From Candidatus Omnitrophota bacterium (lineage in GTDB: Bacteria; Omnitrophota; Gorgyraeia; Aquiviventales; Aquiviventaceae), in the NCBI GenBank assembly GCA_016209275.1, contig JACQWM010000053.1, positions 11,235-75,234 of the forward strand: DNA of 64,000 nucleotides, written 5' to 3'. Position 1 is the first letter of the stretch. Every line of letters starts with the position of its first letter. The notes under the pieces were generated by a model. The model made no database searches. It was not told the origin of the DNA and saw nothing but the letters and a program-made list of their open reading frames with translations. The translations under genes and the position numbers were made by a program. Positions 1 to 63,226 of this stretch are shown here, piece after piece.

Positions 1-1249
1 TGCTGCGCCGTCCGCCGAAAATGATCGCCGAAATCGGCACGCCCTGGGGATCATTCCAGCGCGGATCCAGCTGGGGGTTGTGCGCCTGCGGCGCGGTGAA
101 CCGGCTGTTCGGGTGCGCGGCTTTCGTCCCTGAAGATGGCGTCCATGGTTTGCCCATCCAGTCGATGCACTGCGGCGGCACCGGGCCATCTTTGCCCTCC
201 CACCACGGGGTCCCGTCAGGCAGCAAGGCGGCGTTCGTAAACAGCGCGTCATGCGACAGGATCTCGACCGCGCTGGGATTGGTCTTCGTGCTCGTTCCCG
301 GGATGACGCCGAAGTAGCCGAACTCAGGATTCACGGCCCGCAGGCGGCCCTGCGCGTCGGCGCGCATCCATGCGATGTCATCGCCGACGGTGGTCACCCG
401 CCATCCCGCCTCGGCGAATCGCCGCGGCGGCCGCAGCATCGCCAAATTGGTTTTGCCGCAGGCACTGGGAAACGCCCCGGTAAAGTACGTGATCTGCCCG
501 TCCGGTGCTTGAAGGCCCGCAATCAGCATGTGCTCCGCCATCCAGCCTTCGCGTTGAGCCAGCGCGCTGCCGATGCGCAGGGCCAAGCATTTTTTTCCGA
601 GCAGCGCGTTGCCGCCGTAGCCGGAGCCATAGCTCCAGATCGTGTTGTCTTGGGGAAAGTGGCAGATGTAGCGGCGGTTCGGATCCAATGCTCCGACGCT
701 GTGGAGGCACTGGGTGAAGGTGGGGCGGTTGCCCAGCTCGCGCAGCGCCACCTCACCCATGCGCGTCATGATGCGCATGCTCAGCGCGACATAGATTGAA
801 TCGGTCAATTGAACGCCGACTTTCGCCAGGGACGATCCGGGGTGGCCCATCAAAAACGGCACCACGTACATCGCGCGCCCCTTCATGCAGCCCTCGAAGC
901 ACTGCCGCAGGGTGCGGTACGCTTCTTCCGGCGCCATCCAGTTGTTGGTCGGGCCGGCCTCATTCTTCGCGGGGGTGCAGATGAACGTGCAGTGCTCGGT
1001 GCGGGCCGTGTCGTTGGGGTGGCTGCGATGCAGGTAACCGCCGGGCAAGACGGTTTGGTTCAGTTCAATGAAGACGCCTCGAGCACAGGCCTCCTTCATC
1101 AGCGCGGCGCGCTCTGCCTCGCTGCCGTTGCACCAGAGGATCGCCTCGGGCTGGCAGAGGGCGGCGCACTCCTGCACCCACTGGTGGAGGGCGGCGTTCG
1201 TTGTTGGCACCTTGATGGCGGTTGGCATCTTCGCAGTCGCGGTACCCAT
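1..1249 (-). CDS. pckG: GTP-dependent phosphoenolpyruvate carboxykinase (N-terminal ~415 aa; C-terminus lies beyond window start)
   Basis: Reverse-complement translation from ATG at 1249 gives [15 protein letters not shown]...[17 protein letters not shown]...[18 protein letters not shown]... (PEPCK-GTP kinase-1a/P-loop motifs). Not in ORF track because the ORF runs off the window edge without a stop; alternative start 1228. Confidence 0.85.
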
Positions 1250-3766: not shown

Positions 3767-5050
3767 ATGAAACGATTATCCCTACTCATCATTGCTTGCG
3801 CGGCGTTCACTCCCCTGGCGGCTGCCGCCGAGGATGTGGCCACACTGCGTCAAGACGTGCAGCGGCTGGCCGCAGTAGTCCAAGAACTCTCCGCCACGGT
3901 GCAGGCCCAACAACGGCGCCTCACGCTCTTGGAAGGCGAGGCGGGCGGCCAAACCCCACAGCTTCCCATCGTGCCATTGCCGCCTGGCGTGATACCATCC
4001 GGTGGTGGGGCAAACCTCTCTGCCCTCAATCCGGAGATTGGGGTTGTCGCCGATATCGCCGGCCAGCTCTCCGAAAGTTCGGCCGATGGCGAGGGGAATG
4101 ACAAGTTGAGTGTGCGCGAGATTGAACTCATCTTTGGCCATCCCATCGATCCCTACTCGCGATTCGATGTGAATGTGACCTTCTCAGATTTCGAAGAAGC
4201 CGGGCTGGAAGAAGCGTACATCACCCACTGGGGGCTGCCGGGAGAGCTCGTTGCGCGCTTGGGACGTTTTCGGCAGCGAGTCGGCAAAGCGAGCGGGACC
4301 CATACAGAGTTGCTTGACACCGTTGATACACCTCTTGTGGTGACGAAGTATCTGGGTGCTGAGGGGTTGTTTCGAACTGGGGCAGAGATCACCGGGTTTC
4401 TGCCAGCGCCGTGGGATGCGGTGACGCATGAGGTGACCGCTGGCATCATGGAAGGCGGTGTCGGCGAAGGCGGAACGCTCTTCGGCGAGACTCGACGACG
4501 GCCATCGTACTACGCGCACCTGAAGAACTTCTGGGATGTCTCCGACTCGACGAACCTCGAAGTCGGAAGCACGTATCTGTTGGGTTCAAAAGACGCCGAT
4601 CGCCGCTACGAGGTCCATGCCTTTGGTGTGGATACCACGTTCATTCACTATGTCACGCCGACCAATAAGCTGAAATGGCAGAATGAGATGTACTTCCAGA
4701 GCCGGAAAGAATCCCTGTTGGTCGAAACAGCCGAGGGTACCGGCGAAGAGATCAGCGCGAAGCTGAACAAGCATCCCTGGGGATTCTATTCGCTGCTTGA
4801 TTACCGGCTCTCGCCTCGGTTCGGCCTCGGCGGACGGTTCGACTACGTCGAGCCGGTTGATCTGGATCCTAGGATCCGGGCGCGGGATGCGGACACCGCG
4901 TGGTCCGGTTACGCGACGTTCTATCAAAGCGAGTTTGCGCGCTGGCGGCTGCAGTTTAAGCACACGAACTTCGCGGCCGGCGGGGATGACAACAGCATCT
5001 TCGCGCAATGCACCGTGGCCATTGGGGTGCATAAGCATCAATTGCAATAA
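3767..5050 (+). CDS. secreted protein, putative outer-membrane porin (N-terminal coiled-coil + beta-rich domain, DcaP-like architecture)
   Basis: Signal peptide MKRLSLLIIACAAFTPLAAAA; coiled-coil LRQDVQRLAAVVQELSATVQAQQRRLTLLE; strong RBS TAGGAGG upstream; sits immediately upstream of metal ABC uptake genes. Confidence 0.45.
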   Translation: MKRLSLLIIACAAFTPLAAAAEDVATLRQDVQRLAAVVQELSATVQAQQRRLTLLEGEAGGQTPQLPIVPLPPGVIPSGGGANLSALNPEIGVVADIAGQLSESSADGEGNDKLSVREIELIFGHPIDPYSRFDVNVTFSDFEEAGLEEAYITHWGLPGELVARLGRFRQRVGKASGTHTELLDTVDTPLVVTKYLGAEGLFRTGAEITGFLPAPWDAVTHEVTAGIMEGGVGEGGTLFGETRRRPSYYAHLKNFWDVSDSTNLEVGSTYLLGSKDADRRYEVHAFGVDTTFIHYVTPTNKLKWQNEMYFQSRKESLLVETAEGTGEEISAKLNKHPWGFYSLLDYRLSPRFGLGGRFDYVEPVDLDPRIRARDADTAWSGYATFYQSEFARWRLQFKHTNFAAGGDDNSIFAQCTVAIGVHKHQLQ

Positions 5051-8069: not shown

Positions 8070-9471
8070 TAGACGATTGATATCAGATATCGCGGCTCGA
8101 CCGCGATATCTGGTATCGCTTGTCTTTATCGTCATCCTTCAGGGATGCCGACCGCCTCAAGGTGTTGATGAGCGCCAATGGCCGCAGGTTGTGCTCGAGC
8201 CTACTGATCGGATTCTGATCCTTGCCCCCCACCCCGATGATGAGGTGATTGGTTGCGGCGGCATCATTCAGGAGGCCGTCGCCAAGCACCTGCCGCTGCG
8301 CATCGTGTTTCTGACTTATGGCGATAACAATCAGTGGTCCTTTCTCCTCTATCGATGGCACCCGGTCATCCTGCCCAAGGCGATTCGCAAGATGGGCCTG
8401 GTGCGGTATCACGAAGCGTTGGCAGCGAGCGTTGTGCTCGGAGTGCCCACAGAGCAATTAACCTTTCTCGGGTATCCGGATTTCGGCACGCTGCAGATCT
8501 GGACCTCGCACTGGGGCGACCGGAATCCCTTCCGCAGCTTGCTGACGCGGGTCACGGCGGTTCCCTACGACAACGCCCTGCGGTTCGGAGCGCCCTATAA
8601 AGGCGAAGAGGTCCTGCGGGATCTGACCACGGTCATCCGCGAATTCCGTCCCACGAAAATCTTCGTGTCCCATCCGGCGGACCACATGCCGGATCATCGA
8701 GCGCTCTATCTGTTTACTCGCGTTGCCCTGTGGGATGTGGAGAAGGAGATGCGCCCAACGCTGTATCCGTATCTTGTGCATTTCGTGCGCTGGCCAACGC
8801 CGCGCGGCTATCAACCCGCCGATTGGCTTGTTCCTCCATCGACGTTATTGTCGCAATGGCCATGGATCGTCCATTGGCTGACCCCGTCACAAGTCCAACG
8901 GAACTATCAAGCCATCAAAGCGCATCGGAGCCAATATCGGTATAGCGCGGCGTACCTGCTGTCCTTCATTCGGCCGAACGAGTTATTCGGTGACGCTCCG
9001 CCGATTACGTTTTCGTCAACGGCGTCCACGGCCTTAGAGCGCAAAGGGTTGATCAACCAGGCTCCGGAAGAGCTCACCGAGGAGGAACGAGCCACGTTCA
9101 TTGGCGTTGAAGTTCGCTCGGTGCAATTGGAGGACCGCGAACTCATCTATTCTATTGAGTGTTCCCGGCCGCTTGCCAAAGCCGTCGAGGCCTCGGTCTA
9201 TCTGTTCGGGTATCGCGCCGACCGGCCATTTGCGCAGATGCCGAAGTTGCATGTGAAAATCGGCGCCCTCTCCCACGAGGTGTTTGACCAAGATCGTTTG
9301 TTGCCGAATAAGGCGGTGACGCTGAGCCGCGGCCTGCGCCAGATCACCCTGCGCGTTTCGCTTGAGACTTTGGGCGAACCTCAGCGGATCTTGACCAGCG
9401 CGCGGACGTATCTGGGTGAGCTGCCGCTGGACTGGGTTTCCTGGCGCGTGCTTGAACTTCCTTCGCCGTAA
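8050..9471 (+). CDS. PIG-L/LmbE-family N-acetylglucosaminyl deacetylase lipoprotein with ~250-aa C-terminal extension
   Basis: Lipobox VILQGC; classic LmbE motif ILILAPHPDDEVIGCGG and HPADHMPDH. Start is ambiguous: ATG 8050 overlaps the GNAT gene, or TTG 8077 lies inside a palindromic repeat. Confidence 0.6.
   Translation: MASPSASRRLISDIAARPRYLVSLVFIVILQGCRPPQGVDERQWPQVVLEPTDRILILAPHPDDEVIGCGGIIQEAVAKHLPLRIVFLTYGDNNQWSFLLYRWHPVILPKAIRKMGLVRYHEALAASVVLGVPTEQLTFLGYPDFGTLQIWTSHWGDRNPFRSLLTRVTAVPYDNALRFGAPYKGEEVLRDLTTVIREFRPTKIFVSHPADHMPDHRALYLFTRVALWDVEKEMRPTLYPYLVHFVRWPTPRGYQPADWLVPPSTLLSQWPWIVHWLTPSQVQRNYQAIKAHRSQYRYSAAYLLSFIRPNELFGDAPPITFSSTASTALERKGLINQAPEELTEEERATFIGVEVRSVQLEDRELIYSIECSRPLAKAVEASVYLFGYRADRPFAQMPKLHVKIGALSHEVFDQDRLLPNKAVTLSRGLRQITLRVSLETLGEPQRILTSARTYLGELPLDWVSWRVLELPSP
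8075..8119. repeat. GATATC-unit palindromic element (locus A)
   Basis: GATATCAGATATCGCGG-ctcga-CCGCGATATCTGgTATC: a 17-bp inverted repeat with 5-nt loop and one mismatch. Confidence 0.8.
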
Positions 9472-16692: not shown

Positions 16693-17292
16693 ATGGGGAA
16701 ATCGCTCTGGGTCTTGGCCAGCCTGCTGGTTGTCGCACCGACGACGGCTGTGGCTTCCGCCGAGGCGGGAACGCCGGCACCCGATGTTCGCCTGATGGAT
16801 TCGCGCGGCACCGCCCGAAGCCTCTCGGAGTTCCACGGCAAGATCGTGGTGCTCGAATGGTGGAATCCGGACTGCCCCTTTGTCAAACGGCATTACGGTG
16901 GGGCGATGCAGCGACTGCAGGACACCTACACCGCGCGGGGCGTCATCTGGCTGATGATCAATTCCTCGGCTCCAGGCAAACAAGGCCGCCTCGCGCCGGA
17001 GGCGGCCAACACCTATGCGGCGACCCATGGGGTGAAGGCGACGGCCATGCTCTTGGACCCTGACGGCGCGGCCGGCCGGTTGTACGGCGCAAAGACGACC
17101 CCGCACATGTTCATCATCGATCCTCAAGGGACGCTCGCCTATGCCGGCGCCATCGACGATCATCCGGCCGTCGATCCGTCGGATCCTCCGCCGGCGTCCA
17201 ATTATGTGACGCAATCCCTTGAGGCGCTGCTTGCTGGCCGGCCGATTCCAGTGAGGACGACCACCTCGTATGGCTGTTCGGTCAAATACTAA
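16693..17292 (+). CDS. thioredoxin-fold redoxin family protein, secreted
   Basis: Signal peptide MGKSLWVLASLLVVAPTTAVASA; redoxin-like core LEWWNPDCPFV. Confidence 0.55.
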   Translation: MGKSLWVLASLLVVAPTTAVASAEAGTPAPDVRLMDSRGTARSLSEFHGKIVVLEWWNPDCPFVKRHYGGAMQRLQDTYTARGVIWLMINSSAPGKQGRLAPEAANTYAATHGVKATAMLLDPDGAAGRLYGAKTTPHMFIIDPQGTLAYAGAIDDHPAVDPSDPPPASNYVTQSLEALLAGRPIPVRTTTSYGCSVKY

Positions 17293-17308
17293 CGACTCGG
17301 AGGTCACG

Positions 17309-18142
17309 ATGCTCGACACGACGCTGGCATTATCAGGGCAGCTGAAGGAAACACTGGAAGCCATCGCGCGGAAGACGGCGTTCCGTCCGCAGATTGGGCT
17401 CGTGCTAGGATCCGGCCTCGGCGGACTGACGAAGTCGGTTCGCGTCGAGACGGAGATCCCGTACGAAGACCTGCCGCACATGCCCAAGGCGACCGCGCCC
17501 GGCCATGAGGGCAAACTCGTGCTGGGCACGATCAGCCAGCAGCGCGTGGCCGTGCTCGCCGGACGGTTTCATCATTATGAAGGCTATCCCATGTCCCAGG
17601 TCGTGTATCCGGTGCAGCTCGTGCGCGCGCTGGGAGCTGAGACGCTAATGCTGACGAGCATCGTCGGCGGCATGAATCCCGCCATGCTGCCCGGCTCGCT
17701 CGTGATGCTTGATGATCACATCAATTTCATGGGGGCGAATCCGCTCTTAGGGCCGAATGATGAGACGATCGGCCCGCGGTTTCCCGATATGTCGCAGCCG
17801 TATGATCCGGCCCTCCAGCAGTTGGCCCGCCAGGTGGCGGCCGAGCAGAAGATTCCGCTGACAGACGGCGTGTATGCGGCGGTGGCCGGGCCGAATCTTG
17901 AGACGCGCGCTGAATACCGCATGCTGCGCGGGATGGGGGCGGATGTGGTGGGGATGTCGATGGTGCCCGAAGTGCTGGCCGCCCGGCATGGCGGCTTGCG
18001 TGTGCTGGCTGTGGTGGTCGTTTCCGACGCGTGCGATCCGGATCACCTGAAGCCCGCCAACATCGAGGAGCTGCTTCGCATCGCTGCGGCCACCGAACCC
18101 AAGCTCACCAAGCTCTTGCAGGGCGTCATCTCCCGACTTTAA
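17309..18142 (+). CDS. mtnP: purine nucleoside phosphorylase family; S-methyl-5'-thioadenosine phosphorylase by context
   Basis: PNP/MTAP family motifs (GSGLGGL, VGMSMVPEV); immediately upstream of mtnA. Confidence 0.65.
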   Translation: MLDTTLALSGQLKETLEAIARKTAFRPQIGLVLGSGLGGLTKSVRVETEIPYEDLPHMPKATAPGHEGKLVLGTISQQRVAVLAGRFHHYEGYPMSQVVYPVQLVRALGAETLMLTSIVGGMNPAMLPGSLVMLDDHINFMGANPLLGPNDETIGPRFPDMSQPYDPALQQLARQVAAEQKIPLTDGVYAAVAGPNLETRAEYRMLRGMGADVVGMSMVPEVLAARHGGLRVLAVVVVSDACDPDHLKPANIEELLRIAAATEPKLTKLLQGVISRL

Positions 18143-18197
18143 CTGCACAGGCGATATCAGATATCGATTTCGATATCTGATATCGCTCTTGCAGTTG
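18141..18197. repeat. GATATC-unit palindromic element (locus B)
   Basis: aaCTGCAcagGCGATATCAGATATCG-attt-CGATATCTGATATCGCtctTGCAGtt: perfect 16-bp arms with an extended outer stem. Confidence 0.85.
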
Positions 18198-18203
18198 ACC
18201 TGA

Positions 18204-19280
18204 ATGCGAGTCAACGGTATCCCTTATCGCACTGTTTGGCTGGAAGGCTCGACGGTGCATCTGATCGATCAGCGCCGTCTGCCGGCGCGGTTTGAGATTC
18301 TTGAGCTGCCCACAGTCCAGCAGACGGCGGAGGCGATTCGCACTATGACCGTGCGAGGCGCTGGGGCCATTGGCGTCGCGGCCGGTTTTGCGATGGCGCA
18401 GGCGGCACTCCTGGCTCCGGCATCCGGCGTGCGCGAAGCGCTCGAGCAGGCGGCGGCGATCATCCGCGCCACGCGGCCCACCGCGCAGAACCTGTTTTAT
18501 GCGGTGCAGCGTATCGTCGACGGCACGCGGTCGGCCCATTCCGTCGACGAGATTCGACGGCGAGCCGTGGTGATAGCTCAACGCATGGCCGATGAAGACG
18601 CCGCCTCCGGCGAGCGCATTGGAATCGTGGGGGCTTCGCTCATCCGCGATGGGGCGTCCGTGATGACGCACTGCAACGCCGGGTGGCTGGCGTTTGCCGA
18701 TTGGGGCACGGCCTTGGCACCCATCTATGTCGCCCATCGAGCCGGCAAACGCGTGTCGGTGATCGTGAATGAGACGCGGCCGCGCGGGCAGGGGGCGAAG
18801 CTCACCGCCTGGGAACTCGGGCAAGAAGGTGTTTCGCATACGCTGATTCCCGATACCGCTGCTGGCTACGCGATGGCGCAAAAACTTGTGGATCTCATCA
18901 TCGTGGGCGCGGATCGCATCGCGGCCAACGGCGATGTGGCGAATAAAATTGGGACGTATGCGTTGGCCGTGTTAGCGCAGGCCCATCAGATTCCGTTCTA
19001 CGTTGCGGCTCCGACCACCACGATCGATGCCGCATGTCCTGAAGGCTCGAAGATTCCTATTGAAGAACGATCCGCTGATGAGGTCGTCTGGACATCAGGT
19101 GTGACCGATGATGGCGCAGAAACCCGCGTGCGCACCGCCCCGGAGCACACCCCAGCGCGCAACTGGGCGTTCGACGTGACACCGGCAGCGCTGATTCGCG
19201 GCCTGATCACCGATCGGGGGATGATTCGCCCTGAGCCTCAGGCGATCGCTGAGGTGATGACCGCGGCGGCGACTCGATGA
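18204..19280 (+). CDS. mtnA: S-methyl-5-thioribose-1-phosphate isomerase
   Basis: eIF-2B alpha/beta/delta-like MtnA family similarity across the full length. Confidence 0.8.
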   Translation: MRVNGIPYRTVWLEGSTVHLIDQRRLPARFEILELPTVQQTAEAIRTMTVRGAGAIGVAAGFAMAQAALLAPASGVREALEQAAAIIRATRPTAQNLFYAVQRIVDGTRSAHSVDEIRRRAVVIAQRMADEDAASGERIGIVGASLIRDGASVMTHCNAGWLAFADWGTALAPIYVAHRAGKRVSVIVNETRPRGQGAKLTAWELGQEGVSHTLIPDTAAGYAMAQKLVDLIIVGADRIAANGDVANKIGTYALAVLAQAHQIPFYVAAPTTTIDAACPEGSKIPIEERSADEVVWTSGVTDDGAETRVRTAPEHTPARNWAFDVTPAALIRGLITDRGMIRPEPQAIAEVMTAAATR

Positions 19281-21268
19281 CTCCTCTTGAGGCGCTCGTC
19301 GCCCGATCTCGACGCATTGGAGCGCAGGAGCGGTTGGGGCTCTTCGGCGGAGGCAACACCTCGATCAAATGCGCGCAGCCGGATCTCTTCGGCCGGCCGC
19401 AGGAGGTGCTGTGGGTCAAAGGCAGCGGCGCAGATTTGAACAATTGTTCCGCGCGGCATTTCGCTCCGCTGGCCCTCGCCCCGCTGCAGCGGATGGCTGC
19501 GCGCGCCGATATGAGCGATGAGGAGATGGTGCGCTTTCTTGAGCGCTGTCTGCTGGATCCGAAAGCGCCGCGCCCGTCGGTGGAAACGCTGCTCCACGCG
19601 TTTATTCCGCAGGCCTCGGTGGATCACACCCATGCCGATGCGATCCTCGCACTCGCCAATACCCGCCGCGGGCGGCACCTCACCCGACGGATTCTTGGTC
19701 CTGAGCTGTTATGGATCCCGTACATCCAGCCTGGCTTTCGGCTCTCGCGCTACGTCTGGGAGGCCTACCGCGATCAGCCACAAGCGCACGGGGCGGTGCT
19801 GGAGAAACACGGCCTCATCACCTGGGGCCCGGATGGGCGCACGAGCCTCAAGCGCACGATCGACGCGGTGTCCCGCGCCGAGCGCTTCATTCATGCCCGG
19901 CGGCGGAAACGATCATGGTCGTCCGTGGGATGCGCCGCACTCAGCCCGAACGAGCGCTCGGCCTGGTTGCGCCGGCGGTTGCCGGTGCTGCGGCGGGTGA
20001 TCAGCCAGCACCGGCGCATGAGCCTGACCGTGTGGGATTCGCCGGACATCCTGGAGTTTGTGAACGCCCGGCGGATGCCGCGAGTCGCCCGCATCGGTCC
20101 GGCGACGCCGGATCACATGCTGCGCACCAAACGCTTGCCGCTGATTGCCCGCGCATCCGACGACATGGCACGGCGGCTTCATCAGTATGCCGACGCGCAC
20201 CGACGCTATTTTCTCACGTATCGCCGCACAGGTCAGGCCATGCAAGACCCCTTCCCGCGCGTCATGCTCATTCCCGGCGTCGGCATGATCACGACAGGGA
20301 AGGATGCTGCCGAGACCGCGCGGGTGGCCATGATCTATCGGCACGCGATGGCCATCATGCGCGATGCCTCAACCGTCGGCGCCTATACGTCGGTGTCGGC
20401 GCGCGAGGCGTTCGGTGTAGAGTATTGGCCGCTGGAGTTGTATAAACTGACCCTCGCCCCGCCGGAGCCGGAATTCGCCCGGCAGATCGGCTTGATCACG
20501 GGAGCTGCCGGGGGCATCGGCCGCGCCATCGCGCACTGTCTGGCCAGCCGTGGGGCTTCGGTCATCGTGACCGATCTTCACGCCGCCGCCGTTGAGCAGC
20601 TCGCGGAGGCGATCAATCGGCGCGTGGGTCGTCGGTGTGCGCTCGGCTTAGGGATGGACGTGACCAGCGAACGCAGCGTGGACGCAGCGCTCGATCGCGT
20701 GCTCCGACAGTTCGGCGGCCTCGACTTTCTCGTGTCCAATGCCGGGATCGCGCACGTCGCGGCCGTGGATCGATTGGAGCTCTCGCAATGGGAACGCAGT
20801 CTGGCTGTCAATGCCACGGGCCATTTCTTGGTGTCGCGAGCCGTCGTGCGTTTGCTCAAGGCGCAGGGCCTGGGGGGTGCGCTCGTGTTTATTGCGTCAA
20901 AAAACGTCTTAGCCCCAGGCAAAGATTTCGGCGCCTATAGCGCGGCTAAAGCGGCGCAAACCCAGCTGGCCCGCATCCTGGCGATTGAAAACGGCGAACA
21001 TCAGATTCGGGTGAATCTGGTGAACCCCGATGGCGTCTTCGAGGGCTCGGGCTTGTGGAACACGATCAAGGCCTCTCGGGCGAAGTCCTATGGCATCACG
21101 CCCAAGGCGCTCGAATCGTATTATCAGGGCCGCAATCTCTTACAGGCGCGCGTGCTGCCGGAAGACGTGGCCGAAGCCGTCGCGTTTTTCATCTCGGCGA
21201 AATCGGCGAAAACCACCGGCTGCATCCTCACCGTCGATGGCGGAGTACGCGAGGCATTTCCGCGATGA
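19277..21268 (+). CDS. bifunctional class II aldolase / short-chain dehydrogenase (RhaEW-like fusion)
   Basis: N-terminal class II aldolase/adducin motif GGGNTS; C-terminal SDR with TGAAGGIGRAIA NAD(P)-binding motif, NAG and YSAAKAA catalytic motifs; ATGA coupling with mtnA and with the next gene. Confidence 0.75.
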   Translation: MTPLEALVARSRRIGAQERLGLFGGGNTSIKCAQPDLFGRPQEVLWVKGSGADLNNCSARHFAPLALAPLQRMAARADMSDEEMVRFLERCLLDPKAPRPSVETLLHAFIPQASVDHTHADAILALANTRRGRHLTRRILGPELLWIPYIQPGFRLSRYVWEAYRDQPQAHGAVLEKHGLITWGPDGRTSLKRTIDAVSRAERFIHARRRKRSWSSVGCAALSPNERSAWLRRRLPVLRRVISQHRRMSLTVWDSPDILEFVNARRMPRVARIGPATPDHMLRTKRLPLIARASDDMARRLHQYADAHRRYFLTYRRTGQAMQDPFPRVMLIPGVGMITTGKDAAETARVAMIYRHAMAIMRDASTVGAYTSVSAREAFGVEYWPLELYKLTLAPPEPEFARQIGLITGAAGGIGRAIAHCLASRGASVIVTDLHAAAVEQLAEAINRRVGRRCALGLGMDVTSERSVDAALDRVLRQFGGLDFLVSNAGIAHVAAVDRLELSQWERSLAVNATGHFLVSRAVVRLLKAQGLGGALVFIASKNVLAPGKDFGAYSAAKAAQTQLARILAIENGEHQIRVNLVNPDGVFEGSGLWNTIKASRAKSYGITPKALESYYQGRNLLQARVLPEDVAEAVAFFISAKSAKTTGCILTVDGGVREAFPR

Positions 21269-22080
21269 CGGCGGTGCCAGGTCCAATCCACGCCGTCATC
21301 CTCGGTGCAGTTGAGGGCTTGACGGAATTTTTGCCGGTGTCTTCCACGGGGCACTTGATTCTCGTCTCCCGCGTGCTGCGGCTGCAGGGCGCCGCCGTAG
21401 ACACGTTTGATGTCGTGATTCAAGCCGGGGCGTTGGTTGCCGTCGTGGGATTGTACCGCCGCCATGTCATGGCCATGGGGCGAGGTCTGCTTGGCCGAGA
21501 TGCCGAAGGCCAGGCGCTGCTCATCAAGGTGCTGATCAGTTTTCTGCCGGCGGCGATGGCCGGAGCAGCGCTGCATCATGCGATCAAGGCGCACCTGTTT
21601 CATCCCGGGGCCGTCATCGCCGCGATGGCGCTCGGCGGGTTGCTCATGATCGCGGTGGATCGCTGGTGCCGCCCTCAGCGCATCGCGTCGCCGCGCACCA
21701 TGATGTCCCTGACGAGGCATCAGGCGCTGATCATCGGCATCGCCCAGTGCGCGGCCCTGTGGCCTGGCACTTCGCGCTCGATGGCGACGATCCTGGCCGG
21801 TATAATGGTAGGGCTGCCGCTGGCTGCGGCCGCGGAGTACAGTTTTTTGCTCGCCCTGCCGACGTTGGGCGCCGCGACGCTGTTTGATGCCGTCAAGGGC
21901 GGTGCTACGCTGTGGCAGCAGATCGGCGGTCTCTCGATCCTCGTAGGATTTGTCAGCGCGGCGATCGTCGCTGCGGTTGCGGTTCGTGGCTTTGTCCAGT
22001 ATGTCAGCCGCCACGGCCTCGCACTGTTTGGATGGTACCGCGTGTTTGTGGCCGCCGTGGTGTGGGTCTATGGACGATAG
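21265..22080 (+). CDS. uppP: undecaprenyl-diphosphatase
   Basis: BacA/UppP signature EGLTEFLPVSSTGHLIL; 8 TM. Confidence 0.85.
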   Translation: MTAVPGPIHAVILGAVEGLTEFLPVSSTGHLILVSRVLRLQGAAVDTFDVVIQAGALVAVVGLYRRHVMAMGRGLLGRDAEGQALLIKVLISFLPAAMAGAALHHAIKAHLFHPGAVIAAMALGGLLMIAVDRWCRPQRIASPRTMMSLTRHQALIIGIAQCAALWPGTSRSMATILAGIMVGLPLAAAAEYSFLLALPTLGAATLFDAVKGGATLWQQIGGLSILVGFVSAAIVAAVAVRGFVQYVSRHGLALFGWYRVFVAAVVWVYGR

Positions 22081-22093
22081 GAGAAAACCATCC

Positions 22094-22654
22094 ATGAAAA
22101 CATCAACCCCTCGGCAACGCGCGATCTCTGCGAGGGATCCTTTGGGCTTCAAACGATACATCCGGAACATTCCGGATTTTCCAAAACCCGGCATCTTATT
22201 TCGCGATATCACGACGCTGCTCCGCAACGGGCCGGCGTTCCACAAGGCGATTCATGCGCTGGCTCAGCGCCATCACGGAACCAAGCCGGATGCGGTGGTG
22301 GCGATTGAGTCGCGCGGCTTGATCGTAGGCTCGGCCCTCGCCTATGAGCTTGGAGTCGGCGTCATCCCCGTCAGAAAGAAGGGCAAGCTGCCCCATAAGA
22401 CATTTCGCGCCAGCTACGAGCTGGAATACGGCACCGACACGCTGGAGATTCACCAGGATGGATTTTCGAGGGGCTCGCGCGTCCTCTTAGTGGATGACCT
22501 GCTGGCCACCGGCGGCACCATGGGGGCGACCATCGACCTCATTGAGCAATGCGGCGGAAACATTATCGAGCTCGCGTTCTTGATCGAGCTGACCGCGCTG
22601 GGCGGGCGCGAGCGCTTAGCACCCTATCCGGTGATTTCCTTGGTGCGGTATTAA
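22094..22654 (+). CDS. apt: adenine phosphoribosyltransferase
   Basis: PRTase motif VLLVDDLLATGGT; full-length APRT similarity; RBS AGGAG upstream. Confidence 0.85.
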   Translation: MKTSTPRQRAISARDPLGFKRYIRNIPDFPKPGILFRDITTLLRNGPAFHKAIHALAQRHHGTKPDAVVAIESRGLIVGSALAYELGVGVIPVRKKGKLPHKTFRASYELEYGTDTLEIHQDGFSRGSRVLLVDDLLATGGTMGATIDLIEQCGGNIIELAFLIELTALGGRERLAPYPVISLVRY

Positions 22655-22671
22655 CACAGGAGGGACGCGCG

Positions 22672-22782
22672 ATGGCGACACGACGGAAAACCGCAAAGCG
22701 GCCAGCCGCCCGGCGCAGCACGGCGCGCAAGCCGGCCGCGAAGCGCAAGTCGATGGGCAGCTGTTCCTGCTGCACGTGTTAA
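22672..22782 (+). CDS. 36-aa highly basic peptide with C-terminal CxCC motif
   Basis: Perfect SD AGGAGGGA 8 nt upstream of ATG; MATRRKTAKRPAARRSTARKPAAKRKSMGSCSCCTC. Confidence 0.35.
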   Translation: MATRRKTAKRPAARRSTARKPAAKRKSMGSCSCCTC

Positions 22783-22788
22783 CCAAAA

Positions 22789-22831
22789 GGCGATATCAGA
22801 TATCGAGCATTCGCTCGATATCTGATATCGC
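22789..22831. repeat. GATATC-unit palindromic element (locus C)
   Basis: GCGATATCAGATATCGAGC-attc-GCTCGATATCTGATATCGC: perfect 19-bp arms. Confidence 0.85.
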
Positions 22832-22837
22832 TCTTGC

Positions 22838-23788
22838 TTGATGGCTGAAAAACTTGTCATTATCGGTTCCGGTCCGGCAGGCCACACGGCGGCGATCTAC
22901 ACCGCCCGCGCCGCCTTATCCCCGGTGATGTTTGAGGGCTTCTCGGCCGGCGGCATCCCCGGCGGCCAGCTCATGACCACGACCGAGGTCGAAAATTATC
23001 CAGGATTTCCCGACGGGGTTGATGGGCAGGAGCTCATGGCCCACATGCGCAAGCAGTCGCTGCGGTTTGGCACGCGCATCTTCACGGAAGACGCCACACG
23101 TGTTGATCTCTCCTCTCGGCCGTTTACCGTGGCCTCCTCCGCGCATGAGGTGAAGGCCGAATCGATCATCGTGGCGGCCGGGGCGACGGCAAAGCGGTTG
23201 AACCTGCCGGGTGAGGCGAGATTATGGAATCATGGCATGTCCGCCTGCGCGGTCTGCGACGGGGCGCTGCCGGTGTTCCGCAACAAGCCGCTCGTCGTGA
23301 TCGGCGGCGGCGACTCGGCCTGCGAGGAATCGCACTTTTTGACGAAGTTCGCCTCGAGGGTGTACCTGGTGCATCGACGCGGCGAGTTGCGCGCCTCGAA
23401 GATCATGCAGGAACGGGTCTTGAAGGATCCGAAGATCGAGGTCATCTGGAACAGCGTGGTCGAGGATGTGCTGGGCAAGACCGCGGTCGAAGCGGTCCGG
23501 CTGCGCCACGCGCAAACGAATCAGACGCGCGAGCTGCCCTGCGGCGGCGTCTTTTACGCCATCGGCTTTACGCCGAATACGGCCATGCTTGCCGGCCAAG
23601 TCGAAACAGATAAGGACGGCTACATCATCACCAAACCGGGCTCAACGCAAACCTCGGTGCCCGGTGTCTTTGCCTGCGGCGATGTCCAAGATAAAAAATA
23701 CCGCCAGGCGATTACCGCCGCCGGCTCCGGCTGCATGGCCGCCATCGACTGCGAACGCTTCCTCGCTGAATCGGATCAGGCAGTTTGA
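22838..23788 (+). CDS. trxB: thioredoxin-disulfide reductase
   Basis: FAD/NAD(P) motifs [10 protein letters not shown] and GGGDSACEE; redox-active CAVCDG. Confidence 0.85.
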
Positions 23789-25511: not shown

Positions 25512-25547
25512 ACGATATCAGATATCGAATTCGATATCTGATATCGC
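25512..25547. repeat. GATATC-unit palindromic element (locus D)
   Basis: CGATATCAGATATCGAATTCGATATCTGATATCG: a perfect 34-bp palindrome. Confidence 0.85.
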
Positions 25548-26451: not shown

Positions 26452-26487
26452 GCGATATCAGATATCGAATTCGATATCTGATATCGT
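26452..26487. repeat. GATATC-unit palindromic element (locus E)
   Basis: GCGATATCAGATATCGAATTCGATATCTGATATCG: identical to locus D; sits between convergent genes. Confidence 0.85.
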
Positions 26488-38113: not shown

Positions 38114-38303
38114 CTCAATGAAGCGAAGGGCATCGCCGACGCTGTCTTCGGCAACCCAGCTGCCCTGTCGCTTCTTGAAGTGCGGGCCTATGGTTTTGCG
38201 TCCCCGGTTTTCGCGGGGTTTGCTCGTTCGGACAGGTCGTGCACGATAACTACATGTTCTATATCATATTTTTTGCCTTCGTTTCAAGGTATACTCTAGA
38301 TTT

Positions 38304-50280: not shown

Positions 50281-50376
50281 AGTTCGATATCAGATATGAA
50301 ATAGCCATTTCATATCTGATATGAAACAGGCAATCCATATCAGATATCAAAACGCCATTTCATATCTGATATCGCC
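50281..50376. repeat. cluster of GATATC-unit palindromic elements (locus F) adjacent to the tRNA-Leu 5' end; an additional half-site at 50181-50191 abuts the tRNA 3' end
   Basis: TTCGATATCAGATATGAAAT-agcc-ATTTCATATCTGATATG ... CATATCAGATATCAAAAcgccATTTCATATCTGATATCGCC: two tandem degenerate hairpins. Confidence 0.8.
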
Positions 50377-61186: not shown

Positions 61187-63217
61187 ATGACGCGGACCTT
61201 CACGATTTCTTCTTCAGCGAGCCTCAAGTTTCACCTCGACTTGGAGCAGGATCTCAACAACGCCCAGCGCGCCGCGGTGACCTGCGGCGAGGGGCCGAAG
61301 CTCGTCATCGCGGGCGCCGGCTCGGGCAAGACCCGCACGATCACCTATCGGGTGGCCTTCCTCATCGCCAAGGGAATCCACCCCAGCCAGATCCTCTTGG
61401 CCACCTTTACCAATAAGGCCGCGCGGGAAATGCTCAGCCGCGTCGAACAATTGACCGGCGGCGACGCCAGCGGCCTGTGGGGTGGGACATTCCACGCCAT
61501 CGGCAATCGGCTGCTGCGCCAGCACGGGACGCTGGTGGGGCTGCAGCCGAACTATTCCATTCTGGATGAGGAAGATCAGCGGGACTTGATCAAAGTCTGC
61601 ATCACCGAGGCCAAGGTGAAGGTTGAAGAGAAACGGTTTCCAGCGCCGTCGCTCATCGGGGATCTGATCAGCATGGCGTTCAACCTGCAGAAACCTCTGG
61701 CGGCTGTCATCGAGGCCCGCGCGCCGCATTTTGGCCTGTGGGCGCCGGAGCTTGAGCAGGTGGCCGCGCGCTATGAGGCGAAGAAGCGGTCGACGAATGC
61801 GCTGGATTACGACGATCTGCTAAAGTTTTGGCTGAAGCTGCTGGAGACCAAGCCTGAGATGGCGGAGCGGCTGAGTCGGCAGTTTCGCCACATCCTCGTC
61901 GATGAGTATCAAGATACGAATGTGGTCCAAGCGCAGATCGTCGAACGTCTGGCCCAGCGCAATGGCCGCAATCTCATGGTCGTCGGAGACGATGCGCAGA
62001 GTATTTACCAGTTCCGCGGGGCCAACTATGACAACATCCTCAAGTTTCCCGAACGCAACCCCGGCACGGAGATCTTCAAGCTGGAAACCAACTACCGCTC
62101 CACCCCGGAAATCCTCGAGTTCACCAACGCGAGCATCCTGCATAACCAGCACCAGCACCGCAAGACCTTGGTCGCGCAGCGCGACCGGGGCCGCCTGCCG
62201 GTCGTGGTCCCCGCGAACGACATGTATCAGGAAGCGGCGTTTGTCGCCGAGCGGATTTTACAATTGCGCGACGACGGCATTCCCTTGGAGGAGATGGCCG
62301 TGCTCTACCGGGCGCACGCGCACTCCTCGATGCTGCAGGCCGAGCTGATCAAGCGCAACATCCCCTACGACGTGCGCTCCGGGGTGCGGTTTTTCGAGCA
62401 AGCGCACATTAAAGATGTGGTGGCGTATCTGAAGGTGCTCGACAATCCGCATGATGAGATCGCCTGGCGGCGGCTGTGGCTCATGCTGCCGAGAGTCGGC
62501 CATGTGACGGCCGCACGGCTCTGGGAGGCGATTGCCAGCGCCGTGAATCCATTCGATGCCGCGCTGACCGAGGCGGTGGCTCGCACGCTGCCGCCGGCCG
62601 CCCAGGCCTACTACAAACGATTTCAGCACGACCTGCGACGGCTCTCGGCGTCCCGCGAGGATGTCTCGCCGCAGGAGCTGATCCGGGCGGTCATGGAGAG
62701 CGGCTATGCGGATTATCTGCGCGCGAAGTACGACGCGTTTCAATCAAGGCTGGAAGATCTGCAGCAGCTTGCGGTCTTTGCGCGGCCGTATCGCAGCCTG
62801 CGCAGCCTGCTCTCGGAGCTGGTGTTGCTCGGCGAGCTGTACGGCCAAGAGGTTGGTCCGGGTTCGGCCGAGACCGAACGGCTCATCCTCAGCTCGGTGC
62901 ATCAAGCCAAAGGATTGGAGTGGCGCGTGGTCTTCGTCATCCGGATGTGCGAGGGCAGCTTTCCGTCGGAGATGGCGTTGCGCGAAGAGCGCGGGGAAGA
63001 GGAAGAGCGGCGGATTTTTTACGTGGCCACGACCCGTGCCAAAGATGAGCTGTACATCACGCATCCGCTCATCGATCTCTCCCCGCGCGGCAACAGCCAG
63101 CTCCTGCTGCAACCCTCGCGCTTCCTGCGCGAGATCCGCTTTACCCTCTATGAGCAAGGCCAGATTGATCAGACGGTTGATATCAGATATCATCAGTCTG
63201 ACGCCGATGATATCTGA
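61187..63217 (+). CDS. UvrD/PcrA/Rep-family ATP-dependent DNA helicase
   Basis: Walker A GAGSGKT, motif II VDEYQDTN, later helicase motifs; the 3' end reads into a palindromic repeat (locus G). Confidence 0.85.
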   Translation: MTRTFTISSSASLKFHLDLEQDLNNAQRAAVTCGEGPKLVIAGAGSGKTRTITYRVAFLIAKGIHPSQILLATFTNKAAREMLSRVEQLTGGDASGLWGGTFHAIGNRLLRQHGTLVGLQPNYSILDEEDQRDLIKVCITEAKVKVEEKRFPAPSLIGDLISMAFNLQKPLAAVIEARAPHFGLWAPELEQVAARYEAKKRSTNALDYDDLLKFWLKLLETKPEMAERLSRQFRHILVDEYQDTNVVQAQIVERLAQRNGRNLMVVGDDAQSIYQFRGANYDNILKFPERNPGTEIFKLETNYRSTPEILEFTNASILHNQHQHRKTLVAQRDRGRLPVVVPANDMYQEAAFVAERILQLRDDGIPLEEMAVLYRAHAHSSMLQAELIKRNIPYDVRSGVRFFEQAHIKDVVAYLKVLDNPHDEIAWRRLWLMLPRVGHVTAARLWEAIASAVNPFDAALTEAVARTLPPAAQAYYKRFQHDLRRLSASREDVSPQELIRAVMESGYADYLRAKYDAFQSRLEDLQQLAVFARPYRSLRSLLSELVLLGELYGQEVGPGSAETERLILSSVHQAKGLEWRVVFVIRMCEGSFPSEMALREERGEEEERRIFYVATTRAKDELYITHPLIDLSPRGNSQLLLQPSRFLREIRFTLYEQGQIDQTVDIRYHQSDADDI

Positions 63218-63226
63218 TATCGCCTT
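63178..63226. repeat. GATATC-unit palindromic element (locus G)
   Basis: GATATCAGATATCATC-agtctgacgcc-GATGATATCTGATATC: perfect 16-bp arms; overlaps the uvrD-like stop codon. Confidence 0.8.

Follow-up and report, generated by a model that had tools for sequence, protein, structure and literature searches.

A small gene between apt and trxB in an Omnitrophota genome and its family of polybasic, cysteine-tailed microproteins

The stretch of DNA analyzed here (the window) comprises 64,000 nucleotides of contig JACQWM010000053.1 (positions 11,235 to 75,234, forward strand) from assembly GCA_016209275.1 of a Candidatus Omnitrophota bacterium. Between apt and trxB it carries a small gene of 36 codons whose product is a polycationic peptide with a cysteine-rich C-terminus. 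A first-pass annotation had described this open reading frame (ORF), its ATG at 22672, its position between the two genes and its peptide, exactly as they are found in the sequence. The features of the locus are given below, where pN and pS are nonsynonymous and synonymous differences per site and REP stands for repetitive extragenic palindromic.

22094..22654, plus strand: apt (adenine phosphoribosyltransferase), the upstream gene; Pfam PF00156 (Pribosyltran)
22658..22665, plus strand: Shine-Dalgarno site AGGAGGGA of the small gene, read from the sequence
22672..22782, plus strand: small protein-coding gene, 36 codons plus TAA; product MATRRKTAKRPAARRSTARKPAAKRKSMGSCSCCTC, with 24 distinct family peptides
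22672..22716, plus strand: polybasic N-terminal segment, codons 1-15, family consensus MATKRKxAKRPKARR; pN/pS 0.28
22750..22779, plus strand: C-terminal SMG-SCSCCTC thiol cluster, codons 27-36, with Cys last; pN/pS 0.24
22790..22831, no strand assigned: REP-like palindrome, GCGATATCAGATATCGAGC followed by a loop and the complement; one copy of a dispersed intergenic family
22841..23788, plus strand: trxB (low-molecular-weight thioredoxin-disulfide reductase), the downstream gene; product identical to MBI4598214.1 from a Candidatus Omnitrophica metagenome-assembled genome (MAG)

The AGGAGG core of the Shine-Dalgarno site is spaced 8 nt from the ATG, in agreement with the first-pass annotation, and the full octamer is spaced 6 nt from it; the gene ends with TAA at 22780-22782. 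The peptide contains the four Cys residues that had been reported, and 12 Lys/Arg residues instead of the 13 counted previously. From its Shine-Dalgarno site, the small gene would be expected to bind ribosomes. Note that such a site followed by a 36-codon ORF is by itself weak evidence for a gene, because AGGAGG is common in the window, which has a GC content of 62%. The hexamer occurs 38 times on the two strands, with nine of these 38 copies preceding ORFs of at least 100 amino acids, and two further combinations of AGGAGG and a start codon open short ORFs. GGAGG is found before only about one quarter of the long ORFs. As judged from the alignments described below, it is comparative evidence, not the window sequence alone, that raises the small gene above chance.

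Homologues were initially sought by scanning 80 loci carrying trxB in all six frames. Homologous ORFs were present only in the three closest genomes (TrxB identity 76-77%), where the peptides are MATKRKTVKKSKVRRASPRKRTTARKGSMGGSCSCCTC (L001), the 42-amino-acid MATKKKARRATKRSKASSRAKPASRRRPSPSMESCGSRCSCC (L002) and MATRRKSTKRPKARRASARKRTMARGKMGCSCC (L003). Protein profile searches were led by an alignment headed with the L002 homologue. Searching 5.8 billion proteins with a word-indexed profile method yielded four more members (P0002-P0005), and an exhaustive hmmsearch of 1.84 billion representatives returned only nine clusters at E ≤ 1e-3, all of 34-50 amino acids. A degenerate DNA pattern matched metagenome contigs 75 times, corresponding to 16 true members, three Lys-rich look-alikes and otherwise chance matches, and the same pattern found only out-of-frame chance matches and no members among viral contigs. 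The peptide of the window itself had no exact match in a collection of 15 billion proteins or in the annotation of the MAG, and no family member is named in any public source. In total, the family comprises 24 distinct peptides of 32-42 amino acids from Omnitrophota MAGs and metagenomes.

All family peptides begin with the motif MAT(K/R)(K/R)K and have a net charge of +11 to +14, with Lys and Arg making up 36% of residues. Units of the type S-P-[KR]-[KR] are present in many members, and S/A-P-[KR]-[KR] and AKRPKARR units also occur, while aromatic and large aliphatic residues are missing save for an occasional Val. Each peptide has two to four Cys residues, which lie within the last nine positions in 24 of 24 cases, and the terminal residue is Cys in all 24. 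A GGAGG-type site is located 5-9 nt upstream of the ATG at every homologous locus, taking the form GGGGG or GGGAG in L106 and L085. Insertions and deletions among homologues are all multiples of three and in frame. Across all 24 sequences, reading frame, Shine-Dalgarno-led start, polybasic body and C-terminal Cys pattern are kept; the loss of the frame in relatives that the first-pass annotation had named as evidence against its proposal is clearly not seen.

Synonymous sites are close to saturation, with an overall pS of 0.65. For codons 1-15, pS is 0.69 and pN is 0.19 (21 loci), giving the ratio of 0.28 listed above, so that constraint on the 15 N-terminal residues matches that on the Cys tail (0.24); the ratio for the middle region is 0.78. 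Pairwise dN/dS values calculated by the Nei-Gojobori method range from 0.13 to 0.47 outside L002, with dS near 1 or saturated. Because pN/pS is far below 1 at saturated synonymous sites, the small gene is under purifying selection. The substitution pattern fits the plus-strand frame, and antisense ORFs over the region were rejected for this reason.

A chance ORF in GC-rich DNA behind a Shine-Dalgarno-like sequence might have been suspected from the frequency of AGGAGG in the window and from the absence of the peptide from both the MAG annotation and the 15-billion-protein collection. The comparison refutes this explanation, since 24 distinct homologues retain the start, the stop region and the frame and show a pN/pS far below 1, and we consider it next to impossible. 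The ORF is almost certainly a genuine, translated, previously unannotated and functional microprotein gene, and we are equally confident from the alignments that it founds a lineage-restricted microprotein family in a GC-rich clade of uncultured Omnitrophota. By this evidence, the polycationic, Cys-tailed microproteins form a real family of modest novelty, and the palindrome that follows the gene is ordinary. Genes this short escape annotation, yet throughout a clade of an uncultured and poorly understood phylum this one is clearly kept by purifying selection.

Profile searches of Pfam, NCBIfam and the PDB with the window peptide or the family alignment gave no meaningful match. The single library match was to the Lys/Ala/Pro-rich C-terminal region of a valyl-tRNA synthetase model. 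AlphaFold2 predicted no fold (predicted local distance difference test score 58.6, predicted template modeling score 0.12), and according to this model the product is an intrinsically disordered polycation. A literature search for a polybasic, Cys-tailed bacterial microprotein found no described case.

At 22790-22831, the palindrome pairs perfectly over a 20-bp stem (-37.9 kcal/mol, z = -8). The first-pass annotation had seen here a GATATC hairpin that could terminate the small gene. The palindrome exists, and a peptide-specific terminator is not borne out, since the element is a REP-like repeat with at least seven copies in the window. Pairs of GATATCNGATATC occur at seven sites (8079-8117, 18153-18184, 22792-22829, 25514-25545, 26454-26485, 50286-50373 and 63179-63221). 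The repeated unit is GATATCAGATATCGA-loop-TCGATATCTGATATC, for which there are 15-17 half-site matches in the 64-kb window versus approximately 0.1 expected (0.07-0.12). Five copies that were aligned each lie at or just past a stop codon and have flanking bases in common; one copy adjoins a tRNA gene. Homologous loci carry unrelated hairpins of the GGGGTCAGACCC type (L003, L081) or no hairpin (L082, L084, L087), and for this reason the hairpin is placed outside the conserved anatomy of the small gene. A role as dedicated terminator or regulator was rejected for an element that is dispersed and unconserved at homologous loci. By sequence, the palindrome is a member of a REP-type dispersed family whose GATATCAGATATCGA core is specific to this genome. 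It resembles REP elements in being a near-identical palindrome of 35-45 nt that is intergenic, positioned right after stop codons and present in at least seven copies per 64 kb, and it differs from them in its genome-specific core, the palindromes of relatives being of the GGGGTCAGACCC type. At most, and in this genome alone, it may modulate mRNA stability or the read-through that reaches trxB.

The small gene begins 17 nt after the apt stop codon and ends 58 nt before trxB, and apt and the small gene are probably on one transcript. The order of the surrounding block in the window is TatD, histidine kinase, AhpC-like, methylthioadenosine (MTA) phosphorylase, mtnA, a class II aldolase/short-chain dehydrogenase fusion, uppP, apt, the small gene, trxB, a DedA/VTT protein, DUF3332 and a COX3-like gene, and the same gene block is found again in relatives. 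The part at 17270-22654 is a methionine-salvage-like block that is collinear in all relatives; it consists of MTA phosphorylase, mtnA (IF-2B family), the fusion, uppP and apt, the fusion being a 663-amino-acid protein with a class II aldolase domain and a short-chain dehydrogenase.

Of the 19 loci with a readable downstream gene, 12 have trxB as the immediate 3' neighbor of the small gene, at a spacing of 27-155 nt. The shortest distance is that of L082, where the trxB ATG is only 27 nt past the stop codon. trxB is without a recognizable Shine-Dalgarno site in the window, where its ATG is 9 nt past the REP stem, and in most relatives. In two lineages pdxH sits between the small gene and trxB, and at other loci the next gene is DedA, a TPM-like gene or the gene for MTA phosphorylase (MTAP), with MTAP-mtnA following in L138 and L152. 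The L002 copy stands alone. It is intact, is convergent with TatD, has no downstream gene, has a hairpin past its stop codon and is preceded by its own promoter-like site (TTGACA-N17-TAGAGT).

Downstream of trxB, relatives have genes for AhpC/Redoxin, Cu/Zn superoxide dismutase (SOD) and a DsbH-like thioredoxin. In one lineage (L163, 8204-15743; also L164-L166 and the P0003 contig) trxB heads an oxidative- and copper-stress island that contains these three genes, a low-molecular-weight phosphatase, YceI and a bufferin cluster (BufA1, MbnB-like, HvfC_N), followed by DUF3332. Where these relatives have the island, the window holds only trxB, DedA and DUF3332.

Upstream, apt directly precedes the small gene in eight loci and in most others precedes a pair formed by the small gene and a gene that we call X_cc. 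X_cc encodes a protein of approximately 115-150 amino acids with a signal-peptide or lipobox-like N-terminus, a coiled coil and the conserved core VVVKTEGxHRLLLPxDWPVEHKDGRIAPV..EEYLSMKFGQV. It has no Pfam domain, and its 36 database relatives are confined to Omnitrophica. X_cc is directly upstream of the small gene in 11 distinct loci (about 60%), where the frames overlap or are separated by no more than 13 nt, and the pair is retained across five flanking contexts, including that of L152 with a CbiX-like gene upstream and MTAP downstream. X_cc is missing from the entire 64-kb window and is not beside the small gene in seven other loci. A longer ORF of 77 amino acids, starting at ATG 22549 in the window, was rejected because it overlaps with apt in a different frame and its upstream part is unconserved, X_cc occupying this place in relatives. 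The following copies of X_cc were located.

L001, 2518-2865: X_cc
L081, 655-1098: X_cc
L082, 5262-5717: X_cc
L084, 5003-5443: X_cc
L085, 2012-2365: X_cc
L087, 164-526: X_cc
L152, 3549-3908, minus strand: X_cc

For the function of the peptide, we tentatively favor, at somewhat less than even confidence, a trans-acting polyanion binder with a thiolate tail that is switched by redox state or by metal. An action in trans is suggested because the N-terminus is constrained at the peptide level, because the L002 copy stands alone, because the downstream gene varies and because no conserved RNA pairing joins the Cys codons to the next start. Polyanion binding is proposed because of the composition, with 36% Lys plus Arg and with SPKK-type and AKRPKARR units; the Lys/Arg-rich low complexity, the SPKK-type units and the lack of a globular fold are all traits of histone H1-like and protamine-like proteins. 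Since the Cys cluster at the end of the peptide is invariant, peptides may be joined to one another by metal-thiolate bridges or by reversible disulfides. The first-pass annotation had offered a small metal/thiol peptide, a lipidation or RiPP-like (ribosomally synthesized and post-translationally modified peptide) substrate, or a nucleic-acid-binding microprotein. Of these, a functional microprotein is the best reading, and nucleic-acid binding or a thiol/metal role appears to fit best, while the RiPP and lipidation options lose ground since no maturase or lipidation enzyme is encoded within approximately 10 kb in the window or beside the gene in approximately 20 related loci.

In the mechanism that we propose, the small gene would be expressed inside an operon of the order apt-(X_cc)-small gene-trxB, and the peptide would be made together with thioredoxin reductase. 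The peptide would coat a polyanion in trans, most likely DNA or RNA/ribosomes and possibly polyphosphate. Its thiolate tail would bridge peptides via a shared metal ion or via reversible intermolecular disulfides, and binding or condensation of the polyanion would depend on the redox or metal state, as in protamines. Thioredoxin reductase would keep the tail in the thiol state or reset it to that state. Co-expression with trxB, and in relatives with the AhpC, SOD and DsbH-like genes, would fit a role that depends on thiol state.

Protamine cysteines lock the DNA-bound state by means of intermolecular disulfides and zinc bridges. Like protamines and other sperm nuclear basic proteins, the family peptides are very small, Arg/Lys-rich, disordered polycations with Cys, comparable in size and charge density. 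Unlike them, they are bacterial, share no sequence homology with protamines and have Cys only in the last four to nine residues, and their DNA binding and cross-linking are only proposed. Short length, high Lys/Arg content, disorder and missed annotation are also shared with the ribosomal proteins bS22 and bTHX, which are 25-35 amino acids long with more than 35% Lys/Arg, are disordered when free, are encoded outside ribosomal operons and are often unannotated. These two proteins lack a Cys tail and have no homology to the family in NCBIfam, Pfam or the PDB. The CSCC, CC and CxC spacings resemble those of metal-thiolate clusters in metallothioneins; in contrast to metallothioneins, a family peptide has two to four Cys (10% of residues, in the tail only), such that oligomers would be needed for a cluster, and the other 80% is polybasic. 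No metallothionein family in Pfam was matched at E ≤ 10.

Among bacterial proteins, the lysine-rich H1-like proteins Hc2 (PMC2848022) and DdbA (PMC3643593) bind DNA, and AlgP associates with polyphosphate granules (PMC9239181). The family shares the low-complexity Ala/Pro/Lys/Arg repeats of SPKK or AKKPA type with this group (chlamydial Hc1 and Hc2, Pseudomonas AlgP, Streptomyces DdbA). The H1-like proteins differ in their length of 120-350 amino acids and in lacking a C-terminal Cys cluster, and they have no hidden Markov model match to the family.

Should the peptide prove to bind polyanions and to have a tail that responds to redox state or metal, bacteria would have a minimal equivalent of protamine-type chromatin locking, and the thioredoxin system a new class of substrate. 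A more specific version of this proposal is a "switchable protamine" of 4 kDa. Here the SPKK-type polycation would coat DNA or RNA, its terminal thiols would cross-link when oxidized or metal-loaded, and the co-transcribed thioredoxin reductase system would reverse the cross-links, by which ultra-small Omnitrophota would gain redox-gated compaction or protection of the nucleoid or ribosomes. We regard this specific version as doubtful.

Several observations weigh against a redox- or metal-switched polyanion binder. Adjacency to trxB, in which the first-pass annotation had seen a hint of a redox-related function, is broken in at least six lineages, and where it occurs it may reflect inherited gene order among related, collinear genomes rather than functional coupling. 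The most persistent neighbor is not trxB but X_cc, which is exported or lipoprotein-like, and a cytoplasmic role at the nucleoid or ribosome leaves this pairing unaccounted for. The analogy to protamines and H1 is one of composition, not of homology. Finally, invariant terminal cysteines (CC or CxC ends) are also expected of a modification or lipidation site, and the proposed mechanism leaves the strict need for a C-terminal Cys unaccounted for.

In a cis-acting, Cys-sensing leader (attenuator), scarcity of Cys-tRNA would make ribosomes pause at the Cys codons that end the ORF, and the output of the next gene, either trxB or methionine-salvage genes, would change as a result. Polycysteine ORFs that act in this manner as Cys "ribulon" attenuators in mycobacteria are leaderless, are first in the transcript and form an RNA duplex covering the next gene's ribosome-binding site (bioRxiv 10.1101/834739). 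The Omnitrophota gene is like them in being unannotated, in having consecutive Cys codons near its 3' end and, at many loci, in lying upstream of thiol or sulfur genes. A run of two or more Cys codons closing the ORF, the criterion used for the mycobacterial attenuators (bioRxiv 10.1101/834739), occurs in the window peptide and in most members. The 12 loci with trxB 27-155 nt downstream, mostly without its own Shine-Dalgarno site, would suit such control, as would L138 and L152, where the gene precedes MTAP-mtnA of a sulfur-amino-acid pathway. The family's length of 32-42 amino acids is also about that of the ribosomal exit tunnel. However, the Omnitrophota gene is probably not 5' in its transcript; it is predicted to be operon-internal, following apt by 17 nt or overlapping or abutting X_cc, and is led by a strong Shine-Dalgarno site. 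Conservation is at the peptide level throughout, and purifying selection acts just as strongly on the N-terminus, which has no Cys. The next gene varies, and in L002 there is none. Minimum free energy folds of seven loci, which are thermodynamic predictions, gave no common pairing of the Cys codons with the next start and no conserved duplex of the kind that a ribosome paused on the Cys codons would disrupt, and the hairpins after the stop codon are unrelated or absent. Consecutive Cys residues are missing in L082/P0004, which have SCTC. We therefore consider a Cys-sensing leader unlikely. If it were correct, "ribulon"-type control would extend beyond Actinobacteria.

Two further explanations are less likely again. 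As the precursor of a RiPP or metallophore, the peptide would have a polybasic leader and a Ser/Thr/Cys-rich core (the last four to nine residues) that is heterocyclized, thioether-bridged, decarboxylated at the terminal Cys, or processed in a methanobactin- or bufferin-like manner. The tail (G)SCSCC(T/S)C does look like azole, lanthionine and methanobactin cores, the terminal Cys is present in 24 of 24 peptides, and the bufferin cluster described above lies 3-6 kb downstream in one lineage (L163-L166 and the P0003 contig). A link to that cluster was rejected, since BufA1 serves as the cluster's own precursor and the cluster is confined to one lineage and not present anywhere in the window. 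Genes for YcaO, Lan, radical-SAM, DUF692 or HFCD proteins are adjacent in none of approximately 20 loci, and none is found in the window from 12.8 to 35 kb. Lipidation enzymes are likewise lacking within approximately 10 kb in the window and from the adjoining genes in approximately 20 related loci. The neighbors are housekeeping genes, and a leader with a charge of +12 and no hydrophobic recognition motif would be atypical. A RiPP or metallophore precursor is accordingly very unlikely. Slimmer still is the chance that the peptide is an envelope partner of X_cc, tethered to anionic lipids by its polybasic residues and by a modified or metal-bound terminal Cys. This would account for the X_cc pair, which overlaps or is no more than 13 nt apart in the 11 distinct loci and moves as a unit, and for the restriction of both families to the same clade; a polybasic stretch with terminal CC or CxC is the pattern of eukaryotic membrane anchors. 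Against it, X_cc is not beside the gene in the window or in seven other loci and is absent from all 64 kb, and neither a signal peptide nor a hydrophobic segment is present in the small gene's product. We also know of no established case of S-acylation or prenylation of cytoplasmic proteins in bacteria.

Peptides that resemble the family in composition were found on contigs unrelated to the Omnitrophota clade. The look-alike MATKKKVAKKPAKKVAKKPVKKHSRGCCCCS of L155 and P0048 is encoded by a stand-alone ORF (L155, 1799-1894, minus strand) in DNA of 53% GC, followed by a hairpin and a T-run like an intrinsic terminator. L149 has a stand-alone Lys-rich micro-ORF ending in ...KKGCCCC (632-727, plus strand) in DNA of 31% GC. 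The L155 look-alike ends in CCCCS and that of L149 in GCCCC. L134, an archaeal-looking contig of 55% GC, has two tandem tiny ORFs behind duplicated TTTATAATG boxes (4667-4913, minus strand), which encode MATKKKTAKKKVVKKKAAKKHVHKCCSCC, ending in CCSCC, and the Cys-less MATKKKGKKKVAKKKGRK; P0049 is a database variant. These Lys-rich, Cys-ended look-alikes (L134, L149, L155, P0048 and P0049) may be analogues of the Omnitrophota family, homology not being established, and polybasic Cys-tailed micropeptides may form a wider, overlooked class.

Elsewhere in the window, a c-di-GMP-I riboswitch aptamer (Rfam RF01051) is located at 38147-38234 on the minus strand, with a score of 53.9 bits versus a gathering score of 35.

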